The notes under the pieces are model-generated. The model did not search any database. It was not told where the DNA came from and worked only from the letters and a program-made list of their open reading frames with translations. From Escherichia coli (GTDB lineage Bacteria; Pseudomonadota; Gammaproteobacteria; Enterobacterales; Enterobacteriaceae): a stretch of 64,000 bases of DNA. The translations under genes were made by a program, and so were the position numbers. Shown here in pieces: positions 8,918 to 57,073 of the stretch; position 1 is the first letter of the stretch; the number at the start of each line of letters is the position of its first letter. The DNA lies in NCBI RefSeq assembly GCF_045037415.1, contig NZ_CP173438.1; one strand, written 5' to 3'.

Positions 8918-11431
8918 ATGCCAGTTGTACCAACAACATCGGGCCGTCAGGTTCAGAGCAGAGGGATTTCGACGCAGGGATTCTCATCGTTTCAGACGCC
9001 AAATGTCGGTGATGTACTTGGCGATGTTGCAGAGCAATATGCAGGTATTATTGCGCAGGCAAAACAGCGTGCGAATGTTGCTATGGCTCAGGATGCTTCT
9101 CTTAGCTTAAGCCAGATAAGCAGCGATCTGCTGAATAACCCTGAAACAGGTTTGCTTAACCTGAAAGGGAAAAATGCTATTGGAAAAGGTCAGGAGTATA
9201 CGCAGCAGTTTGATGCCCAGGTCGAGCAACTGGCTATGTCGCTGCCGGATGAACAGGCTCGTAATGCTTTCATGCAGCAGGCGCAGCAGCAGCGCATTCA
9301 GTTCACTACGCAGGCCGGGCGGCACGAGATAGGGCAAATAAATGCCTACGAAGAAGGCCAGTTTCAGGCGACGCTGCTGAACAATGGTAAAAATGCCGCA
9401 GCATTGTATGGCGACAACGCCGCATACGTATTGGCTAATAAGCAAACTTTCCAGCAAATTGAGGATTACGGCATTGCGCATGGCTGGAGCGACGAGCAAA
9501 TCCAGGCCAAGAAAATCGAGTTTAAAGAGAAGGTTGCTGATGCAGCATTGTCCCAGTGGTCGGCAAACAATGCGACCGCATTCATCCAAAGTAATGGCGA
9601 GTTAAGTGATACTGCTGCTGGAGCTAGCCGTGCTGTAGCAGATAGTGATTCTTCCGAGCGTGCCCGTGGCATACGCAACAATAACCCAGGAAATCTCGAA
9701 TACAGCAAAACCAATCCGTGGGTAGGCCAGACCGGTGATGATGGTCGATTTGCTAAATTCGAAACACCTGAACACGGGATTCGTGCATTAGGGCGGAACC
9801 TGATGTCGTATCAGAGGCAGGGTATTGATACCGTCAGCGAGATAATTAATCGCTGGGCACCGCCTACTGATAAAAATGACACTATGTCGTATATCAAAGC
9901 AGTGTGCGAACAACTTGGCGTTTCTGCTGATGAGCCTCTCGATGCATCTAATCCTGATACCCTGAAGGCGCTTTGTGCAGCCATTATCCATCATGAGAAC
10001 GGTAGCCAGCCATACAGTGATCAGCTGTTAAGTGCTGGTGTCAGTGCAGCACTTGGTTTATCAACAATTCCAACCAACACCAAACGCTATACCGGTAATG
10101 CAGCATTCGATGCGGCATCTCCTGAGGCGCAGGCAAGTTTTATGCGACAGGCGGATCAACTGCGTCGGCAGCAGCAGGCTGAATATAAAACGATGATTGA
10201 CAGCCAAGTTCGCGATGCGACAGCTGCGTATATGCGTGGCGTTGAATTTCCTAACCCACCTGGTGAGGCTGATTTTATTGCAGCTTATGGAGTCAGAGAA
10301 GGAAACCTGCGATATACCGAGTTCAGAAATACGCAAATCGCCGGACAGTATATAGGCTCTTTCCGCAACATGCCGACAAGCAGCATTACAGCATATGTTG
10401 AGCAATTACGCCCGGATACTGGTGAGACAGGGGAGGGTTATGCGGCACGAGCCGCTCTTTATGACAACGTTGTGTCGGCTGCAAGTCAGGTGATAAAGCA
10501 GCGACAGGCTGATCCTGTACAGTTCTCTCTTGCCGCCGGACAGGCAAAGCCTATCGACATGAGCAATAAGGATAACTTTGGACAGAGCGTTGCCTTGCGT
10601 GCTGCTCAGGTCAGTGACCTTGCTAAGTCATATGGCACTCCACTGACGTTCTTTTCCAAAGACGAGGCCAATCAGATCGGTGTTTTCTTTCGTAATGCGC
10701 CCGTTTCCCAACAGGCAGCATATCTCGATACCATCAGGCAGAGCACTGGTGGTGGGCAGGTGTATATGTCAGCACTACAGCAGATCAGTGCCAACGCTCC
10801 ATCTGCTGCCGTTGCCGGGATACTGATGGATAAGCCAGGTGGTATTTTGGCAGAAAAAAACTGGTTTAATCCGGATGTTTCCGTGTCTCCTGAAACCGCT
10901 GCGCAGACAATTCTTGCTGGCGCGGCGGCTCGTAAAGGTACTGATGACGCGAAAGGTATTCCGATGCCTAAAGATGCTGATCTTCGCCTTGAGTTTTCTG
11001 ACATGGTGAAGGATGCATTTGCTGGTGATGCTCAGGGGGCATCAATGGCATACGAGATCGCAAAGGACTATTACGCTGGTGTGATGGCGAAAAAAGGCGT
11101 GGTATCAGGCGAAATTGACAATGATATCTGGAAACAGGCTGTTAACGTAGCTACAGGTGGCGTGCATGACTATAACGGAATGGGGAATGTTCTTTTGCCT
11201 TGGGGAATGTCTGCAGAGCAATTCGATAAGCAGGTTAATCAGGTTTGGAATGAACAAGTTGTTGGCACAGGGATAAAAACACCGCCTGGTCAGTATGGTT
11301 TGCAAAGTTACGGCGATAGTCAGTACCTGGTGAAACTTGGTACTGGTTATCTGCTAAAAGATGATGGTTCTCCCGTTGTTCTTGATCTGACACAGAAGCG
11401 TCAGAGATTCTCCGGAGATATTCCGCAATGA
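8918..11431 (+). CDS. Large internal virion (ejection/core) protein, 837 aa
   Basis: RBS AAGGGGA; first of three consecutive large proteins equivalent to podovirus core proteins; contains a GIRNNNPGNL motif block. Confidence 0.6.
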   Translation: MPVVPTTSGRQVQSRGISTQGFSSFQTPNVGDVLGDVAEQYAGIIAQAKQRANVAMAQDASLSLSQISSDLLNNPETGLLNLKGKNAIGKGQEYTQQFDAQVEQLAMSLPDEQARNAFMQQAQQQRIQFTTQAGRHEIGQINAYEEGQFQATLLNNGKNAAALYGDNAAYVLANKQTFQQIEDYGIAHGWSDEQIQAKKIEFKEKVADAALSQWSANNATAFIQSNGELSDTAAGASRAVADSDSSERARGIRNNNPGNLEYSKTNPWVGQTGDDGRFAKFETPEHGIRALGRNLMSYQRQGIDTVSEIINRWAPPTDKNDTMSYIKAVCEQLGVSADEPLDASNPDTLKALCAAIIHHENGSQPYSDQLLSAGVSAALGLSTIPTNTKRYTGNAAFDAASPEAQASFMRQADQLRRQQQAEYKTMIDSQVRDATAAYMRGVEFPNPPGEADFIAAYGVREGNLRYTEFRNTQIAGQYIGSFRNMPTSSITAYVEQLRPDTGETGEGYAARAALYDNVVSAASQVIKQRQADPVQFSLAAGQAKPIDMSNKDNFGQSVALRAAQVSDLAKSYGTPLTFFSKDEANQIGVFFRNAPVSQQAAYLDTIRQSTGGGQVYMSALQQISANAPSAAVAGILMDKPGGILAEKNWFNPDVSVSPETAAQTILAGAAARKGTDDAKGIPMPKDADLRLEFSDMVKDAFAGDAQGASMAYEIAKDYYAGVMAKKGVVSGEIDNDIWKQAVNVATGGVHDYNGMGNVLLPWGMSAEQFDKQVNQVWNEQVVGTGIKTPPGQYGLQSYGDSQYLVKLGTGYLLKDDGSPVVLDLTQKRQRFSGDIPQ

Positions 11432-27765: not shown

Positions 27766-31378
<3,613 letters not shown>

Positions 31379-36360: not shown

Positions 36361-36459
36361 TGTCGGATGCGGCGCGAACGCCTTATCCGACCTACGCGAA
36401 GTTAATCCATAGTATTCGTAGGCCGGATAAGACGCGGCAAGCGTCGCATCCGGCAATGT
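36361..36459. repeat. REP/BIME element (two inverted REP units)
   Basis: GCCGGATGCGGCG...CGCCTTATCCGGCCTAC-type palindromic units. Confidence 0.8.
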
Positions 36460-36484
36460 GCTTCAACTAGCGATGGAGCACATC

Positions 36485-36844
36485 TTAACCCACGATTTCC
36501 AGTACCTGCTCCGGTGGACGACCAATCCGTGCTTTGCCATTCGCGACCACAATCGGGCGTTCCATTAGTTTCGGATTATCCACCATCGCCTGAATCAGCG
36601 CCTCTTCGCTAAGTGAACTGTCAGCCAGGTTCAGTTCTTTATAAAGATCCTCTTTTTGGCGCATCAATTCACGAGCGCTATTCATCCCCAGCATTTTCAG
36701 CAAATCACGCAGCGTTGCCGCATCGGCGGGTGTCTCAAGGTAGAGCACCACTTCTGGCTCCACGCCGTTTTCTTTCAGCAGGTTCAGCGTTTCCCGGCTC
36801 TTTGAACAGCGTGGGTTATGGTAGATTTTTACCTGTTTGGTCAT
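36485..36844 (-). CDS. yfgD: ArsC-family protein YfgD
   Basis: 119 aa; CSKSR thioredoxin-like motif. Confidence 0.9.
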   Translation of the reverse strand: MTKQVKIYHNPRCSKSRETLNLLKENGVEPEVVLYLETPADAATLRDLLKMLGMNSARELMRQKEDLYKELNLADSSLSEEALIQAMVDNPKLMERPIVVANGKARIGRPPEQVLEIVG

Positions 36845-36864
36845 TGTTCTTCCTTTAATGCGAA

Positions 36865-38328
36865 TTACATCTTGGTATAAGGCTTAAAGCGTTCCTGCAG
36901 CTGGCGCAACTGGTCGATGCGCGCATCGTAACGCGCTTGTTGCAGGCTGCCTAATTTCACCTGCGAACTGGCGCTACTCAACAAGGAAATAGCCTGATCG
37001 AGTCGCCCGGCGAGCGCATAACCTTCTGCTCGCGCAGCCAGTTCCTGATCGCGGTTATTTAGTGCGGCTTCCGCCTGTGCCAGTAAATCCCAGCCGTTGC
37101 TGTCATCTTTATTGTTAAAAGTGTAGCGATTCAGAATATTGGCCGCTTCCTGTGGTTGCCCCCCTTGCAGATAAGCGTTCGCCAGGTTGAGCTGCAACAC
37201 CGGATTGGTGCGCAAATCGCGGGCATTTTTCAGGCGATTGATAGCGTCATTGGCTTTGTTTTGCCCAAGATCGATATCGGTAGCCAGATCGAGATACCAT
37301 GCGTTGCCAGGTTCTGCTGCCAGTAACGGTTGCAGCGTTTTACGCGCTTCGTCGTATTTATTGGCTTCCATCGCCTGTAGAGCACGACCATATTGCGCCG
37401 CTCGTTGCTGACGAACGTTTCCTTTCGCCCATTCATCCAGCAAATCACTGGTGAGCTGGTTACGTCCGGAATTATACATCCCCAGTGTGCGCGCTTTCGC
37501 CAGATAGAAATCTTCCGACGACTGCACCACCATCGGGCGCATCTGATTAGCACGGTTGCGGGCATCTGCCAGACGACTTTCCGGCAACGGGTGAGTCAAT
37601 AAAATTTCCGGCGGACGCGAGGAGTAACGCGCCTGATCGAGTAATTTTTCGAGGAAGGTCGGCATCGCCTGCGGATCGAATCCCGAGCGTTGCAGCACCT
37701 GAATACCAATGCGGTCCGCTTCCTGTTCATTTTGCTGGGTGAAACTGATCATCCCCTGGCGCGTTCCCGCCAGTGTACCGGTCAGCGCCGCCATCCCCGC
37801 CTGCGGACTGGCCATCGCCAGTAAAATAGAACCTAACGCGCCGACCCAGGTCAGCGGCGCGCTGCGCTGCTGATCTTCCATCGCTCGCGCCAGGTGACGT
37901 TGGGTGACGTGGGAGATTTCGTGCGCCATAACTGAAGCCAGTTGACTTTCGTTATCGGAATAACGGAACAGGGCAGAGTGCAGCACCACGTTGCCGCCAA
38001 AGAAAGCAAAGGCGTTAATTTCGTCGTTGTTGATCAGAAAGAAATGAAACGGTGTCTTAACCGAATTGGCATGCGAAACCAGACGCATTCCTAGCGAATT
38101 AATATATTGCGTTAATAGCGGGTCATTAATTAACGGCGCGCTGCCGCGTAACTGGCGGACATAATAGTCGCCCATCTGCATTTCCTGACCAATGGAAAGT
38201 GTGCTTCCTGCGGAGGTTCCCATATCCGGCAAGGTGTCTGCGCTGTCGGCAAACGCCGGGGCTACCTGACCAATGGTCATAGCAGCAATGAGGGTTGCAA
38301 CCAGGTTTTTTTTCAACTGCCTGAACAT
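36865..38328 (-). CDS. bepA: Beta-barrel assembly-enhancing protease BepA (YfgC)
   Basis: 487 aa; signal peptide, HEISH zinc motif (M48) and TPR region. Confidence 0.95.
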
Positions 38329-38540
38329 AACCTCTATCCTGTATTTCTGGAGATAGTCATTTGACCGATACTGTGAAATATCGTTCCCACCGCGCCGCCT
38401 TTGAGTGTAACGACGAAGATTAGCCCACTCAAATAACTTTTCAGTTTCCTGAATCCGTCATAAAAAGCGAAGTCTTTTTTGTGACATTTCGATACAATTG
38501 CGGATCGCAATCCCGCTCTTGAGGTTCAGGTAAGGTCTGT

Positions 38541-39602
38541 ATGCTCGAAATGTTGATGCAATGGTATCGCCGCCGTTTTAGCGACCCGGAAGCGATTGCC
38601 TTGCTGGTTATTTTAGTCGCCGGATTTGGCATTATCTTTTTCTTTAGTGGCCTGCTTGCTCCGTTGCTGGTGGCTATTGTGCTGGCCTATTTGCTGGAGT
38701 GGCCAACCGTGCGCCTGCAATCTATTGGCTGTTCCCGCCGCTGGGCGACGTCGATTGTATTGGTGGTTTTCGTCGGTATATTGCTACTGATGGCGTTCGT
38801 GGTTCTGCCTATTGCCTGGCAGCAGGGCATCTACTTAATCCGCGATATGCCGGGGATGCTCAATAAGCTTTCTGACTTTGCCGCCACGTTGCCGCGCCGC
38901 TATCCGGCGTTAATGGATGCGGGCATTATTGATGCAATGGCCGAAAATATGCGCAGTCGGATGCTGACCATGGGCGATTCGGTGGTGAAAATTTCCCTCG
39001 CCTCGTTGGTCGGTTTGCTGACCATTGCCGTCTATCTGGTGCTGGTGCCATTGATGGTCTTCTTCCTGCTGAAAGACAAAGAGCAGATGCTGAACGCCGT
39101 TCGCCGGGTGCTGCCGCGCAACCGTGGACTGGCAGGACAGGTGTGGAAGGAGATGAATCAACAAATCACCAACTATATCCGCGGCAAAGTGCTGGAGATG
39201 ATCGTGGTAGGGATCGCCACCTGGCTGGGGTTCTTGCTCTTTGGGCTGAACTATTCGCTGCTGCTGGCGGTGCTGGTCGGCTTCTCGGTACTTATTCCGT
39301 ACATTGGCGCATTTGTGGTGACCATTCCGGTGGTTGGCGTGGCGCTATTCCAGTTTGGTGCTGGCACGGAATTCTGGAGCTGCTTCGCGGTGTATCTGAT
39401 TATTCAGGCGCTGGACGGCAACCTGTTAGTACCGGTGTTGTTCTCCGAAGCGGTTAACCTGCATCCTCTGGTGATTATTTTATCGGTGGTGATCTTCGGT
39501 GGTTTGTGGGGATTCTGGGGCGTATTCTTCGCTATTCCATTGGCGACGCTGATCAAAGCCGTGATTCACGCCTGGCCTGATGGGCAAATCGCGCAAGACT
39601 GA
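38541..39602 (+). CDS. perM: AI-2E family permease PerM (YfgO)
   Basis: 353 aa polytopic membrane protein. Confidence 0.9.
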   Translation: MLEMLMQWYRRRFSDPEAIALLVILVAGFGIIFFFSGLLAPLLVAIVLAYLLEWPTVRLQSIGCSRRWATSIVLVVFVGILLLMAFVVLPIAWQQGIYLIRDMPGMLNKLSDFAATLPRRYPALMDAGIIDAMAENMRSRMLTMGDSVVKISLASLVGLLTIAVYLVLVPLMVFFLLKDKEQMLNAVRRVLPRNRGLAGQVWKEMNQQITNYIRGKVLEMIVVGIATWLGFLLFGLNYSLLLAVLVGFSVLIPYIGAFVVTIPVVGVALFQFGAGTEFWSCFAVYLIIQALDGNLLVPVLFSEAVNLHPLVIILSVVIFGGLWGFWGVFFAIPLATLIKAVIHAWPDGQIAQD

Positions 39603-39699
39603 CCTTCAGCGAAAAATTTGAAACGAGTGTTGCAGGGCAGTGAGAAGATTTGAGATGTGCTGGCCGCAAGCGCAGCCAGCACGGAATGGAGCAAAGTAA

Positions 39700-40170
39700 T
39701 CAGGCGTGTTCTTTCAGCCAGTTCAGCACAACGTCGTGGTGATTGCTGGTTTTGAAATCGTCAAAGACATGTTCGATTTTGCCATCAGCGTCAATCAGGA
39801 AGCTGATGCGATGAATACCATCGTAGGTTTTGCCCATGAAGGACTTTTCACCCCAGACGCCGAATTGTTCGCACACCTGGTGGTCCTCATCAGACAGGAG
39901 CGTAAAGTTAAGCAGCTCTTTTTCCGCAAAACGGGAGAGTTTTTCGGGTTTATCGGTGCTGATACCCAGCACATCAACGCCCGCTTTTTTCAACTCATCC
40001 ATGTTATCGCGTAAGCCGCAGGCCTGTACGGTACAGCCGGGGGTCATGGCTTTCGGGTAGAAATAAACCAGAACACGCTGTCCCTGGAAGTCGGTCAAAT
40101 TAACTTGTTCTCCGTCTTGATCCGGCAAGCTAAATTTCGGTGCGATATCACCGGCTTTCAGTGGATTCAT
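39700..40170 (-). CDS. bcp: Thiol peroxidase Bcp (peroxiredoxin)
   Basis: 156 aa; catalytic Cys context MTPGCT. Confidence 0.95.
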   Translation of the reverse strand: MNPLKAGDIAPKFSLPDQDGEQVNLTDFQGQRVLVYFYPKAMTPGCTVQACGLRDNMDELKKAGVDVLGISTDKPEKLSRFAEKELLNFTLLSDEDHQVCEQFGVWGEKSFMGKTYDGIHRISFLIDADGKIEHVFDDFKTSNHHDVVLNWLKEHA

Positions 40171-40742
40171 TACTTAACTCCATCCTGTTCATCATGTTGG
40201 GAATAATTGACGACGTTAATACTGCCTTGTGCATTGAGTTCTGTACATAGGGCTTTGAACGCTTGCTCAATATTTGCTGCGTCCGCAGATGCGGGGCTGT
40301 GGGCAGTTATCTGAATATGTAACTGCGCAGCCCGTTCATTTTCAGCAGGTTGCGTGCGCGACACCAGCTCCGCAATGTTCATATGATGCGCGTCGAAAAG
40401 TGCTGTGAAGCGTTCAATTAAATGCGGGGAGTCTGCCACATCGACCTGAACCCAGACAGATGCTGGCATTGGTGGACGCGGACGCGCCGTCGTGCGCTTC
40501 ATCACGATTAAAAGATCCAGTTCGGCACCTTTCAACGGTAACGTTGATTCAATCAGGGTGATTGCATTCCATGAACCGGAAAGCAGCATGATAAACGTGA
40601 ACTCTTCTCCCAGCATCGCCAGGCGACTGTCTTCAATATTACAGCCGCAACTACTGACATGACGGGTGATGGTGTTCACTATTCCAGGGCGATCGGCACC
40701 CAACGCAGTGATCACCAGATAATGTTGCGATGACAGTGTCAA
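40170..40742 (-). CDS. gcvR: Glycine cleavage system transcriptional repressor GcvR
   Basis: 190 aa from TTG start (TLSSQHYLVITALGADRPG); stop overlaps bcp start. Confidence 0.9.
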   Translation of the reverse strand: MTLSSQHYLVITALGADRPGIVNTITRHVSSCGCNIEDSRLAMLGEEFTFIMLLSGSWNAITLIESTLPLKGAELDLLIVMKRTTARPRPPMPASVWVQVDVADSPHLIERFTALFDAHHMNIAELVSRTQPAENERAAQLHIQITAHSPASADAANIEQAFKALCTELNAQGSINVVNYSQHDEQDGVK

Positions 40743-40887
40743 ACTGGTTATTCCTTCAAGGGGTGAGTTGTTCTTAAGGAAAGCATAAAAAAAACATGCA
40801 TACAACAATCAGAACGGTTCTGTCTGCTTGCTTTTAATGCCATACCAAACGTACCATTGAGACACTTGTTTGCACAGAGGATGGCCC

Positions 40888-41766
40888 ATGTTCACGGGAA
40901 GTATTGTCGCGATTGTTACTCCGATGGATGAAAAAGGTAATGTCTGTCGGGCTAGCTTGAAAAAACTGATTGATTATCATGTCGCCAGCGGTACTTCGGC
41001 GATCGTTTCTGTTGGCACCACTGGCGAGTCCGCTACCTTAAATCATGACGAACATGCTGATGTGGTGATGATGACGCTGGAGCTGGCTGACGGGCGCATT
41101 CCGGTGATTGCCGGGACCGGTGCTAACGCTACTGCGGAAGCCATTAGCCTGACGCAGCGCTTCAATGACAGCGGTATCGTCGGCTGCCTGACGGTAACCC
41201 CTTACTACAATCGTCCGTCGCAAGAAGGTTTGTATCAGCATTTCAAAGCCATCGCTGAACATACTGACCTGCCGCAAATTCTGTATAATGTGCCGTCCCG
41301 TACTGGCTGCGATCTGCTCCCGGAAACGGTGGGCCGTCTGGCGAAAGTAAAAAATATTATCGGAATCAAAGAGGCAACAGGGAACTTAACGCGTGTAAAC
41401 CAGATCAAAGAGCTGGTTTCAGATGATTTTGTTCTGCTGAGCGGCGATGATGCGAGCGCGCTGGACTTCATGCAATTAGGCGGTCATGGGGTTATTTCCG
41501 TTACGGCTAACGTCGCAGCGCGTGATATGGCCCAGATGTGCAAACTGGCAGCAGAAGGGCATTTTGCCGAGGCACGCGTTATTAATCAGCGTCTGATGCC
41601 ATTACACAACAAACTATTTGTCGAACCCAATCCAATCCCGGTGAAATGGGCATGTAAGGAACTGGGTCTTGTGGCGACCGATACGCTGCGCCTGCCAATG
41701 ACACCAATCACCGACAGTGGTCGTGAGACGGTCAGAGCGGCGCTTAAGCATGCCGGTTTGCTGTAA
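40888..41766 (+). CDS. dapA: 4-hydroxy-tetrahydrodipicolinate synthase
   Basis: 292 aa from [17 protein letters not shown]. Confidence 0.95.
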
Positions 41767-41782
41767 AGTTTAGGGAGATTTG

Positions 41783-42817
41783 ATGGCTTACTCTGTTCAA
41801 AAGTCGCGCCTGGCAAAGGTTGCGGGTGTTTCGCTTGTTTTATTACTCGCTGCCTGTAGTTCTGACTCACGCTATAAGCGTCAGGTCAGTGGTGATGAAG
41901 CCTACCTGGAAGCGGCACCGCTTGCGGAGCTTCATGCCCCGGCTGGAATGATTTTGCCGGTGACCTCCGGCGATTATGCAATCCCGGTGACCAACGGTAG
42001 TGGTGCTGTCGGTAAGGCGCTGGACATTCGTCCACCAGCCCAGCCGTTGGCACTGGTTTCTGGCGCGCGTACCCAGTTCACGGGCGATACCGCTTCATTG
42101 CTGGTGGAAAATGGTCGTGGCAATACTCTGTGGCCGCAGGTGGTTAGCGTGCTGCAGGCGAAAAACTACACCATCACCCAACGTGATGATGCTGGTCAGA
42201 CACTGACCACCGATTGGGTACAATGGAACCGTCTGGACGAAGACGAGCAGTATCGTGGTCGTTATCAAATCTCTGTTAAGCCGCAGGGTTATCAGCAGGC
42301 GGTTACGGTTAAACTGCTGAACCTGGAACAGGCGGGCAAACCGGTTGCAGACGCGGCGTCCATGCAGCGTTACAGCACGGAGATGATGAACGTTATTTCC
42401 GCCGGTCTGGATAAATCTGCCACTGACGCCGCGAACGCTGCGCAAAATCGTGCCTCCACCACTATGGACGTACAAAGTGCAGCTGATGACACCGGTTTAC
42501 CAATGCTGGTCGTACGCGGGCCGTTCAATGTGGTTTGGCAACGTCTGCCAGCTGCGCTGGAAAAAGTGGGCATGAAAGTGACCGACAGCACCCGTTCGCA
42601 GGGCAACATGGCCGTAACTTATAAGCCGCTGTCTGACAGCGAATGGCACGAACTGGGCGCGAGCGATCCAGGTCTGGCATCCGGTGACTATAAACTGCAG
42701 GTTGGCGATTTAGATAACCGCAGCAGCCTACAGTTCATCGATCCGAAAGGTCATACTCTGACTCAGAGTCAGAACGACGCGCTGGTAGCTGTCTTCCAGG
42801 CTGCGTTTAGCAAGTAA
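41783..42817 (+). CDS. bamC: Outer-membrane protein assembly factor BamC (NlpB)
   Basis: 344 aa lipoprotein, lipobox LLAAC. Confidence 0.95.
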
Positions 42818-42860
42818 AAATACAGGGCTGGAGTCATCCGGCCCTTTTTTCTGATATGAT

Positions 42861-42876
42861 ACGCAAACGTGTGCGT
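42861..42876. promoter_or_regulatory. PurR operator-like site upstream of purC
   Basis: ACGCAAACGTGTGCGT, close to the PUR-box consensus. Confidence 0.65.
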
Positions 42877-42920
42877 CGGCAGAAAAACGCGATTTTAGCG
42901 GTAATTCGCACGAAATTTGT

Positions 42921-42975
<55 letters not shown>

Positions 42976-43029
42976 ACACCAGACAGCAAAAGATTTTAAA
43001 ACGTTAATTCACACCCAGGAGTGATAAAG

Positions 43030-43743
43030 ATGCAAAAGCAAGCTGAGTTGTATCGTGGTAAAGCGAAAACCGTATACAGCACGGAAAACCCGGACCTGTT
43101 GGTGCTCGAATTCCGCAATGATACGTCAGCAGGGGATGGCGCGCGCATTGAGCAGTTTGATCGCAAAGGTATGGTGAACAACAAGTTCAACTACTTCATT
43201 ATGAGCAAACTGGCTGAAGCGGGTATCCCGACTCAAATGGAGCGTCTGCTCTCCGATACCGAATGTCTGGTGAAAAAGCTGGATATGGTGCCGGTTGAGT
43301 GTGTCGTGCGTAACCGTGCTGCTGGCTCTCTGGTGAAACGTCTTGGAATCGAAGAAGGTATTGAGCTGAACCCGCCGCTGTTCGATCTGTTCCTGAAAAA
43401 CGACGCCATGCACGATCCGATGGTCAACGAATCTTACTGCGAAACCTTTGGCTGGGTGAGCAAAGAGAACCTGGCGCGTATGAAAGAGCTGACCTACAAA
43501 GCGAACGACGTGCTGAAAAAACTGTTCGATGATGCTGGTCTGATTCTGGTCGACTTCAAGCTGGAGTTTGGTCTGTACAAAGGCGAAGTGGTTCTGGGCG
43601 ATGAGTTCTCCCCGGACGGCAGCCGCCTGTGGGACAAAGAAACGCTGGAGAAAATGGACAAAGACCGTTTCCGCCAGAGCCTCGGTGGCCTGATCGAAGC
43701 CTATGAAGCCGTCGCCCGCCGCCTGGGTGTACAGCTGGACTGA
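43030..43743 (+). CDS. purC: SAICAR synthetase
   Basis: 237 aa from [16 protein letters not shown]. Confidence 0.95.
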
Positions 43744-43910
43744 TTTTTCTGTTCATCATCTTGCCGTGCTGCTGGCACGGCAAGACAACCGCTCTCATAA
43801 GATGAGTATTGAACGCTCATTCCTCCGCCATTTCATCCCGCTTTCCTGTGGTAATCTTCCTCTGAACCACCTACGATCATTTCTATAATGAATATAATGT
43901 TGAGGTATCT

Positions 43911-44774
43911 ATGCGTTGGCAAGGGCGACGTGAAAGTGACAATGTTGAAGACAGGCGCAATAGCTCCGGCGGTCCGTCAATGGGCGGTCCCGGTTTTCGC
44001 CTGCCAAGCGGTAAAGGCGGGCTGATTTTACTGATAGTCGTGCTGGTTGCAGGCTACTATGGCGTTGATTTAACCGGGTTGATGACCGGACAGCCGGTTT
44101 CCCAACAGCAATCAACGCGGTCAATTAGCCCTAATGAAGACGAAGCCGCAAAATTCACCTCGGTGATTCTGGCAACCACGGAAGACACCTGGGGACAGCA
44201 ATTCGAGAAGATGGGTAAAACCTATCAGCAACCGAAGCTGGTCATGTACCGTGGAATGACGCGTACCGGCTGCGGGGCGGGCCAGTCCATAATGGGGCCA
44301 TTCTATTGCCCGGCGGATGGCACAGTTTATATCGATCTCTCCTTCTATGATGACATGAAAGACAAACTTGGCGCGGATGGCGATTTTGCCCAGGGGTACG
44401 TTATCGCTCATGAAGTCGGTCATCATGTGCAGAAACTGTTAGGCATCGAGCCGAAAGTTCGTCAACTGCAACAAAACGCGACGCAGGCGGAAGTAAACCG
44501 CTTATCTGTGCGTATGGAACTCCAGGCCGACTGTTTTGCCGGTGTCTGGGGGCATAGTATGCAGCAGCAAGGTGTTCTGGAAACCGGCGATCTGGAAGAG
44601 GCGCTGAACGCGGCGCAGGCCATCGGCGATGACCGTTTACAACAGCAAAGTCAGGGGCGAGTAGTACCAGACAGTTTCACTCATGGCACTTCTCAGCAAC
44701 GCTACAGCTGGTTTAAACGTGGTTTCGACAGCGGCGATCCGGCACAATGCAATACTTTTGGTAAAAGCATTTAA
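43911..44774 (+). CDS. ypfJ: Putative zinc metallopeptidase-like protein YpfJ
   Basis: 287 aa; TM anchor; HEVGHH motif. Confidence 0.9.
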
Positions 44775-55093: not shown

Positions 55094-57073
55094 ATGAATC
55101 GTTTTATTATGGCCAACAGTCAGCAATGTCTGGGTTGTCATGCTTGTGAAATCGCCTGTGTCATGGCTCACAATGACGAGCAACATGTCCTGAGCCAACA
55201 CCATTTTCATCCCCGAATTACGGTTATCAAACATCAGCAGCAACGTAGTGCCGTGACCTGTCACCATTGTGAAGATGCGCCCTGCGCCCGTAGCTGCCCT
55301 AATGGCGCAATCAGCCACGTTGATGACAGCATTCAGGTCAATCAGCAAAAGTGTATTGGCTGTAAATCCTGCGTGGTGGCCTGTCCATTTGGTACGATGC
55401 AAATCGTTCTGACACCCGTTGCGGCAGGAAAAGTAAAAGCCACGGCGCATAAATGCGACCTTTGTGCAGGGCGCGAAAACGGTCCTGCCTGTGTCGAAAA
55501 TTGCCCGGCGGACGCGCTGCAACTGGTCACTGACGCCGCACTCTCCGGCATGGCGAAATCCCGCCGCTTGCGCACCGCACGTCAGGAACATCAACCGTGG
55601 CATGCCAGTACCGCGGCGCAAGAAATGCCGGTAATGAGTAAAGTCGAGCAAATGCAGGCAACGCCCGCGCGTGGCGAGCCAGATAAACTGGCGATTGAAG
55701 CGCGCAAAACCGGTTTTGATGAAATTTATCTGCCATTCCGTGCCGATCAGGCACAACGGGAAGCCTCGCGCTGCCTTAAGTGCGGCGAGCACAGCGTTTG
55801 TGAATGGACCTGCCCGCTGCATAACCATATACCGCAGTGGATTGAACTGGTGAAAGCCGGAAACATCGACGCCGCCGTCGAGCTTTCTCACCAGACCAAC
55901 ACCCTGCCGGAAATTACCGGACGCGTTTGCCCGCAAGACCGTTTGTGTGAAGGTGCCTGTACTATTCGCGATGAGCACGGCGCAGTAACTATCGGTAACA
56001 TTGAACGCTACATTTCAGATCAGGCGTTGGCGAAAGGTTGGCGTCCTGACTTAAGCCATGTCACCAAAGTGGACAAGCGGGTGGCGATTATCGGTGCGGG
56101 TCCGGCAGGGCTGGCCTGTGCAGATGTTCTGACCCGCAATGGCGTGGCGGTGACGGTGTACGATCGCCATCCAGAAATCGGTGGCTTGCTCACTTTCGGC
56201 ATTCCTTCTTTCAAACTGGATAAATCCCTGCTGGCACGCCGTCGGGAAATCTTCAGCGCGATGGGGATTCACTTCGAACTCAATTGTGAAGTGGGTAAAG
56301 ATGTCTCTTTGAATTCGCTTTTGGAACAATACGACGCGGTCTTCGTTGGCGTAGGCACTTACCGTTCCATGAAAGCGGGTTTACCCAATGAAGATGCGCC
56401 GGGCGTTTATGACGCGCTGCCGTTCCTCATCGCCAACACTAAACAGGTGATGGGACTCGAAGAGCTACCGGAAGAGCCGTTTATCAATACCGCCGGACTT
56501 AACGTCGTGGTACTGGGCGGCGGCGACACCGCGATGGACTGTGTGCGTACCGCGCTGCGCCATGGCGCGAGTAACGTCACCTGCGCTTATCGTCGTGATG
56601 AAGCTAACATGCCAGGCTCGAAGAAAGAGGTGAAGAACGCCCGTGAAGAGGGGGCCAACTTCGAATTTAACGTCCAGCCGGTGGCGCTTGAGCTGAATGA
56701 ACAAGGTCACGTCTGCGGGATTCGTTTCCTGCGCACGCGTCTTGGCGAGCCGGATGCCCAGGGACGTCGGCGTCCAGTGCCGGTGGAAGGCAGTGAATTT
56801 GTCATGCCAGCCGATGCGGTGATTATGGCGTTTGGCTTCAATCCGCACGGGATGCCGTGGCTGGAGTCGCACGGTGTAACGGTAGACAAATGGGGCCGCA
56901 TCATCGCGGATGTGGAAAGCCAGTACCGTTACCAGACCACGAATCCGAAAATCTTCGCCGGTGGTGACGCCGTGCGTGGTGCGGATCTGGTGGTTACCGC
57001 AATGGCAGAAGGACGTCATGCGGCACAGGGGATCATTGACTGGCTGGGCGTAAAATCAGTCAAATCTCACTGA
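55094..57073 (+). CDS. aegA: Fe-S/FAD oxidoreductase AegA (glutamate-synthase small-subunit-like)
   Basis: 659 aa; N-terminal 4Fe-4S ferredoxin Cys clusters; NAD(P)-binding GAGPAG. Confidence 0.95.
   Translation: MNRFIMANSQQCLGCHACEIACVMAHNDEQHVLSQHHFHPRITVIKHQQQRSAVTCHHCEDAPCARSCPNGAISHVDDSIQVNQQKCIGCKSCVVACPFGTMQIVLTPVAAGKVKATAHKCDLCAGRENGPACVENCPADALQLVTDAALSGMAKSRRLRTARQEHQPWHASTAAQEMPVMSKVEQMQATPARGEPDKLAIEARKTGFDEIYLPFRADQAQREASRCLKCGEHSVCEWTCPLHNHIPQWIELVKAGNIDAAVELSHQTNTLPEITGRVCPQDRLCEGACTIRDEHGAVTIGNIERYISDQALAKGWRPDLSHVTKVDKRVAIIGAGPAGLACADVLTRNGVAVTVYDRHPEIGGLLTFGIPSFKLDKSLLARRREIFSAMGIHFELNCEVGKDVSLNSLLEQYDAVFVGVGTYRSMKAGLPNEDAPGVYDALPFLIANTKQVMGLEELPEEPFINTAGLNVVVLGGGDTAMDCVRTALRHGASNVTCAYRRDEANMPGSKKEVKNAREEGANFEFNVQPVALELNEQGHVCGIRFLRTRLGEPDAQGRRRPVPVEGSEFVMPADAVIMAFGFNPHGMPWLESHGVTVDKWGRIIADVESQYRYQTTNPKIFAGGDAVRGADLVVTAMAEGRHAAQGIIDWLGVKSVKSH

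Follow-up and report, generated by a model that had tools for sequence, protein, structure and literature searches.

An uninterrupted, ancestral-type perM-bcp junction at the hyf-less locus of an Escherichia coli ST131 chromosome

The window, by which we mean the whole 64-kb stretch of DNA analysed here, carries the genes hda, arsC/yfgD, bepA and perM on one side of the site of interest and bcp, gcvR, dapA, bamC, purC and ypfJ on the other, in that order. The perM gene (38541–39602, + strand) was taken from the ORF list and encodes an AI-2E family transporter of 353 aa with 99.7% amino acid identity to K-12 YfgO; yfgO is also the annotation of this ORF in genomes that are 100% identical to the window, and its TGA stop occupies positions 39600–39602. 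The bcp gene (39700–40170, − strand), likewise from the ORF list, encodes a thiol peroxidase of 156 aa with 100% amino acid identity to K-12 Bcp, and the next gene beyond it, in K-12 synteny, is gcvR (40170–40742, − strand; 100% identity to K-12 GcvR by tblastn). The sequence between perM and bcp is a spacer of 97 bp (39603–39699) in the 'empty', or hyf-less, form. An earlier note on this DNA had reported that the two genes are directly adjacent, which the coordinates of the convergent ORFs, exactly 97 bp apart, bear out, and that the flanking genes are K-12-like as proteins, which they are at 99.2–100% identity to K-12.

Within the spacer, alignments across the junction place a single copy of the hexamer TTCAGC at 39605–39610, followed by a core of 40 bp (39611–39650) for which blastn returned no match to K-12. 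Just downstream of bcp lies a GC-rich hairpin (GTGCTGGC...GCCAGCAC; 39657–39682, with a − strand fold z of −2.6), which is identical in K-12, is kept in both of the alleles described below and is probably a structure of the bcp 3' end. This hairpin lacks a U-tract terminator consensus, and the 97-bp spacer gave no Rfam match and contained no consensus promoter or terminator.

Neither blastn nor tblastn detected hyf or focB remnants in the spacer or in the 64-kb window, so the absence of hyf from the whole window, as first noticed, stands; DNA and protein searches gave a paralogue only. This paralogue is a HyfA-like 4Fe-4S ferredoxin domain at 55094–55567 (+ strand) with 38% identity to HyfA, which we take from the K-12 map to be probably the N-terminal part of aegA.

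Positions 28000–52000 of the window (24,001 bp) are 100.0% identical to EC958, JJ1886, JJ1887 and other ST131 O25b:H4 chromosomes, and because of this identity the window can be assigned, as far as sequence goes, to an E. coli ST131 chromosome of phylogroup B2. Nissle 1917, 83972 and the type strain DSM 30083 are hyf-less as well. The 80-bp contiguous perM-bcp junction matches at 100% in EC958 and at 98.8% in Nissle 1917 and 83972, and among the hyf-less B2 strains compared (EC958, JJ1886, Nissle 1917, 83972 and DSM 30083) the junction has either full or at least 97.5% identity to that of the window, and the order perM-bcp-gcvR-dapA is shared. The A-run of the ST131 allele is one A shorter than in several other B2 strains; otherwise the alleles show no material difference.

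We drew allele counts from 5,426 complete E. coli genomes. The contiguous junction was found in 1,126 of them, about a fifth, and the K-12 hyf-focB segment in 4,299, with the K-12-type perM-focB junction in 4,299 genomes and the K-12-type bcp-hyfA junction in 4,298. Genomes with hyf and genomes with the contiguous junction together number 5,425 and so account for all genomes with a match to the locus, and the species therefore has essentially two alleles at this site. Their boundaries are uniform across E. coli, which agrees with the earlier description of a clean presence/absence difference. The same description would have failed if hyf lay elsewhere in the genome; at the population level this is contradicted both by the totals and by the finding of 0 hyf copies on plasmids in the 5,426 complete genomes. 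The totals, compared as sums rather than genome by genome, fit the absence of hyf elsewhere in hyf-less genomes. One plasmid-typed record bears the chromosomal perM-bcp locus together with hyc, and 1 of the 5,426 genomes lacks any match to the locus; these are likely to be mis-typed replicons or unusual assemblies.

The K-12 locus (L001; MG1655, NC_000913.3) served as the reference for the other allele, and its annotation gives the order bcp-hyfABCDEFGHIJR-focB-yfgO, in agreement with the earlier note. By blastn, window positions 36422–39610 on the yfgO side match K-12 at 97.6% and positions 39651–44648 on the bcp side at 98.8%, and the intervening 13.8 kb of K-12 (L001 4999–18812) corresponds to 40 bp in the window. 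The K-12 hyf locus, which encodes hydrogenase 4 (FHL-2), hence occupies the same chromosomal site between the same flanking genes, at 97.6–98.8% nucleotide identity, but differs from the window in having an additional 13,751 bp (the insert plus one TTCAGC copy), a second TTCAGC and a diverged spacer core. The insert consists of the focB terminator, focB, hyfR, hyfJ to hyfA and 135 bp upstream of hyfA.

In the orientation of the window, the left junction of K-12 reads perM ...GAATAATC TTCAGC / CCGACG..., where the sequence enters the perM/focB terminator hairpin and then focB, and the right junction reads, from the 135 bp upstream of hyfA, ...AACG TTCAGC / AAAAAATGGATTCGACACCCGTGTCGCAGGGGAAAGCGAGAATGTGATCTTGATCAC GAGAAGTGAGGTATG, followed by the hairpin and bcp. 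The single junction of the window reads perM ...GACTGACC TTCAGC GAAAAATTTGAAACGAGTGTTGCAGGGCAGTGAGAAGATTTGAGATGTG, followed by the K-12-identical hairpin and bcp. The two TTCAGC copies of K-12 (L001 18813–18818 and 5062–5067) flank the hyf-focB segment, and the left copy overlaps the stem of the perM-focB hairpin, a bidirectional terminator that is present in K-12 and lacking in the window. The 39611–39650 core has its K-12 homologue between hyfA and bcp, in a copy that is strongly diverged, bears indels and is about 20 bp longer.

We also considered whether the K-12 hyf-focB segment is a genomic island in the classical sense, with an integrase or transposase, a tRNA attachment site and atypical GC content, and found that it does not fit this description. 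All of its 12 annotated genes are hyf or focB, none being a mobility gene, and its GC content is unremarkable (53.8% vs 52.3% in the flanks). As for flanking direct repeats, the segment has only the 6-bp TTCAGC.

To place the two alleles among relatives, one genome per species was scanned with PerM and then searched by tblastn with K-12 proteins. perM and bcp are directly adjacent, with spacers of about 50–260 bp, in E. albertii, in the locus L003 and in representatives of about 60 other species of Enterobacterales and Vibrionaceae, and the genes converge over a short spacer, as in the window, in Enterobacter, Kluyvera, Yersinia, Serratia and Vibrio. As a rule, perM lies next to bcp in Enterobacterales and in some Vibrionaceae. 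Over its whole length, TGACC at the perM stop included, the spacer of the window is collinear with that of E. albertii, whereas the hyf-bearing alleles compared have TAATC at the perM stop and a diverged core. The core of the window and of other B2 strains is about 85% like the E. albertii spacer (a difference of about 15–18%) and is common to all sampled hyf-less E. coli (ST131, KE41, S87, CT265, 23AR0806, L086 and L092). L003 (NZ_JAATUR010000003.1), although labelled 'E. coli SCPM-O-B-8794', is 5.5–7.3% diverged from both B2 and K-12 at the locus and, on that divergence, probably represents a cryptic Escherichia clade; its spacer (11060–11127) is 68 bp long, lacks the core and has the K-12-like TAATC at the perM stop.

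Within the genus, the one-genome-per-species PerM scan returned E. albertii and one cryptic lineage, and E. fergusonii was absent from its output. The search for FocB homologues yielded no named non-coli Escherichia cluster, and FocB matches of intermediate identity proved to be E. coli sequences that were frameshifted or came from a low-coverage assembly. We found nothing in the literature on hyf in cryptic clades or E. fergusonii. Outside Escherichia, the nearest FocB is that of Citrobacter amalonaticus (59%), followed by those of Yokenella, Phytobacter and Kosakonia (54–58%); since the closest of these is just 59% identical, no recent donor of the island is visible.

In several genera the gap between perM and bcp is occupied by other genes. 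ORF translations only were used to describe them. Citrobacter (L004–L006) has an isoaspartyl-dipeptidase-like gene and two membrane-protein ORFs. In L018 and L019 (Pluralibacter) the ORFs resemble a glycerate kinase, a GntP-type permease and a regulator of the sugar-diacid type, to which L019 adds a sugar ABC transporter. Those of L028 resemble a glycerol dehydrogenase, the subunits of dihydroxyacetone kinase, a GlpF-like channel and a sigma-54 regulator. The content of L047 looks like a macro-domain protein and that of L048 like membrane proteins. Two further loci, from Enterobacter sp. Bisph1 and a soil MAG (L013 and L017), have a distant hyf cluster at the perM-bcp site, with 54–85% amino acid identity by tblastn. 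These contents suggest that the perM-bcp spacer is a recurrent insertion hotspot across genera.

When the K-12 segment was excised in silico between its TTCAGC copies, the product differed from the window in its perM stop context (TAATC), its diverged core and its greater length. Because of these differences, the window allele is not a simple deletion derivative of a K-12-type allele; its form is instead that of an uninterrupted, ancestral-type site.

Around the site, the left flank is strongly mosaic, in the 5' half of perM (38541–39100) and in bepA (about 37479–37678). In other B2 strains (KE41, S87, L086 and L092) the left flank has a patch that resembles E. albertii and is 9.5–12% diverged from K-12, whereas ST131 is K-12-like there. 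Since the 5' part of perM is K-12-like in ST131 and, unlike it, E. albertii-like in other B2 strains, the perM gene of ST131 looks recombinant. No long diverged block, as a sign of foreign import, is attached to the junction itself, and the patches of 9–12% divergence at about 37479–37678 and 38664–38863 are isolated. On the other side, the spacer between purC and ypfJ (43744–43910 in the window) has an inserted vapBC toxin–antitoxin pair in several E. coli lineages, annotated as vapB/VapC in CT265 and consisting of a PIN-domain gene and a 75-aa ORF in the hyf-bearing loci L084, L085, L087, L088 and L090; the pair is absent from the window, from K-12 and from hyf-less KE41 and S87.

A few genomes combine the empty core with unexpected surroundings. 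In HH45 (L096) and HH97 (L097), the flanks are 98–99.9% K-12-like, and linked SNPs of the K-12 type (TAATC and GTGAGGTATG) stand directly on both sides of the canonical empty core. Z1323CEC0015 (L099), which is also hyf-less, is of B2 type on the left side and of K-12 type on the right. These three strains show an occasional transfer of the two alleles between backgrounds. Only a few bases separate the switch points from the indel, a pattern not easily explained by ordinary RecA-dependent crossovers.

Six loci (L103–L108), reached through FocB sequences named 'Escherichia sp. MOD1-EC4550', bear on the age of the island. These have hyf at the perM-bcp site with an identical perM-focB junction, and their hda-purM region differs by 2.2–3.4% from that of all E. 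coli sensu stricto, as compared with 1.3–1.6% between B2 and A-like strains. Their hyfE-focB region is 97.1% identical to K-12 (2.9% diverged), and their flanks are 96.7% identical. From these divergence values and the source name, we infer that they belong to a clade-I-like sister lineage. Because its hyf genes have co-diverged with their surroundings, the island would predate the split between B2 and A.

Taken together, hyf in this clade-I-like lineage and the empty, ancestral-type site of B2 indicate that the polymorphism is old. In the ancestral arrangement, perM and bcp would have converged over a spacer of about 100 bp, as is the case for E. albertii and for most Enterobacterales. Adding a 13,751-bp insertion to this site would give the K-12-type allele, with TTCAGC duplicated at the edges of the insertion and a much-diverged copy of the spacer core after it. 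The hyf-bearing allele would be fixed in most non-B2 lineages and in the clade-I-like sister, while the empty allele would have been inherited by B2 and, according to the literature, F/G. The reading that we prefer, and regard as somewhat favoured by the evidence, is that B2 (with F/G) received the empty allele by lineage sorting and never had the island; the empty sites of E. albertii, L003 and the roughly 60 outgroup species were counted in its favour.

A more far-reaching proposal, which we advance tentatively and hold with a little less than even confidence, is that the 13.75-kb block and the diverged spacer copy were recombined in from a distant enterobacterial donor and persisted as an ancient polymorphism. 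Under this proposal B2/F/G never had the block, the published 'loss' in the FGB2 lineage has the wrong polarity and the spacer is a site of recurrent cargo.

Alternatively, the ancestor of E. coli might have carried hyf, with the F/G/B2 ancestor later swapping in an empty allele still segregating in Escherichia by homologous recombination, which would restore the ancestral-type spacer and leave no scar. An island that predates the B2/A split makes loss in B2/F/G the more parsimonious course, in line with the statement in PMC6896753, and such a secondary loss by allele replacement agrees in outcome with that published inference. The co-diverged island in the clade-I-like outgroup lineage also speaks for it, and the empty cores of HH45, HH97 and Z1323CEC0015 in non-B2-like backgrounds, with flanks up to 99.9% K-12-like, indicate that replacement or something equivalent occurs. 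Nevertheless, the B2 flanks at the junction are ordinary relative to other E. coli (0.8% on the bcp side and 2–3.5% over the last 540 bp of perM), with no imported block evident beside it, and the difference of about 15–18% between the B2 core and that of E. albertii argues against a recent foreign donor. Replacement also requires one event more than lineage sorting. We consider it a possible but rather unlikely origin of the B2 allele.

A simple deletion, in which illegitimate recombination or slippage between the two 6-bp TTCAGC copies of a K-12-type allele removed hyf-focB from B2, is very unlikely. The repeat does flank the K-12 segment and does occur once in the window, and microhomology of at least 6 bp at a random junction has a probability of only about 0.0013. 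However, such an event should leave the K-12-type perM stop context (TAATC) and, beside bcp, the diverged core with its roughly 20 extra bp, as did the in silico excision, whereas the window follows E. albertii in both order and length and all 1,126 of 1,126 hyf-less genomes have the empty-type junction. Finally, that hyf has simply moved elsewhere in the genome or that the adjacency is an assembly error, for which we found no support, is scarcely credible given the identical junction of hundreds of independently finished genomes, the sum of 4,299 and 1,126 to all 5,425 locus-matching genomes and the lack of plasmid copies.

FHL-2 is a putative proton-translocating formate hydrogenlyase-2. The strain represented by the window would lack hydrogenase 4 (FHL-2), together with HyfR as its activator and FocB as a formate channel, and would rely on hyc (FHL-1); of the 5,426 genomes, 5,420 have the hycBCDEFGHI operon, for hydrogenase 3 (FHL-1). 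Where hyf is retained, it is often damaged. Six of the eight sampled hyf-bearing loci have a frameshifted hyfB and a hyfD that is either frameshifted or shorter by 69 codons: in L084, L085 and L087–L090, the hyfB frameshift lies near codon 190, and hyfD either is frameshifted or has lost about 69 codons (about 210 bp) in frame. Decay of hyf extends to the matches H60–H69. In ET776 (L082), focB and hyfD are annotated as frameshifted, and in strain 300081 only 21% of the hyf segment is left, beside IS1. The K-12 hyf genes themselves have been called a silent operon (Self et al. 2004, as cited in PMC7384014). Because hyc is present, hyf is often damaged and K-12 hyf is described as silent, the phenotypic weight of hyf absence is probably small. 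The relevance to formate and hydrogen metabolism that the earlier note proposed is thus upheld as to the genes, since hydrogenase 4, HyfR and FocB are gone, but is weaker as to their impact.

That B2 (and F/G) lack hyf has been published before, and the window allele is in this respect ordinary. Touchon et al. 2009 (PMC2617782, Table 5) list hyfABCDEFGHIJ among the functions specifically absent from B2, Gonzalez-Alba et al. 2019 (PMC6896753) report that the FGB2 lineage lost the hyf operon, and Touchon et al. 2020 (PMC7314097) found B2 to be negatively associated with the Hyf system. The suggestion that the locus is useful for strain typing is consistent with these reports, as the allele tracks phylogroup, with ST131/B2 in the window and hyf absent from B2 and the F/G/B2 lineage in the literature. 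A PCR across perM-bcp, giving about 0.1 kb vs about 13.9 kb, separates hyf-less lineages (B2, and F/G according to the literature) from the rest, and the hyf-less junction confirms the window as a B2/ST131 chromosome. The only new point is evolutionary: the anatomy of the junction is that of an ancestral-type site, which qualifies, and does not overturn, the published 'loss' of hyf in B2.
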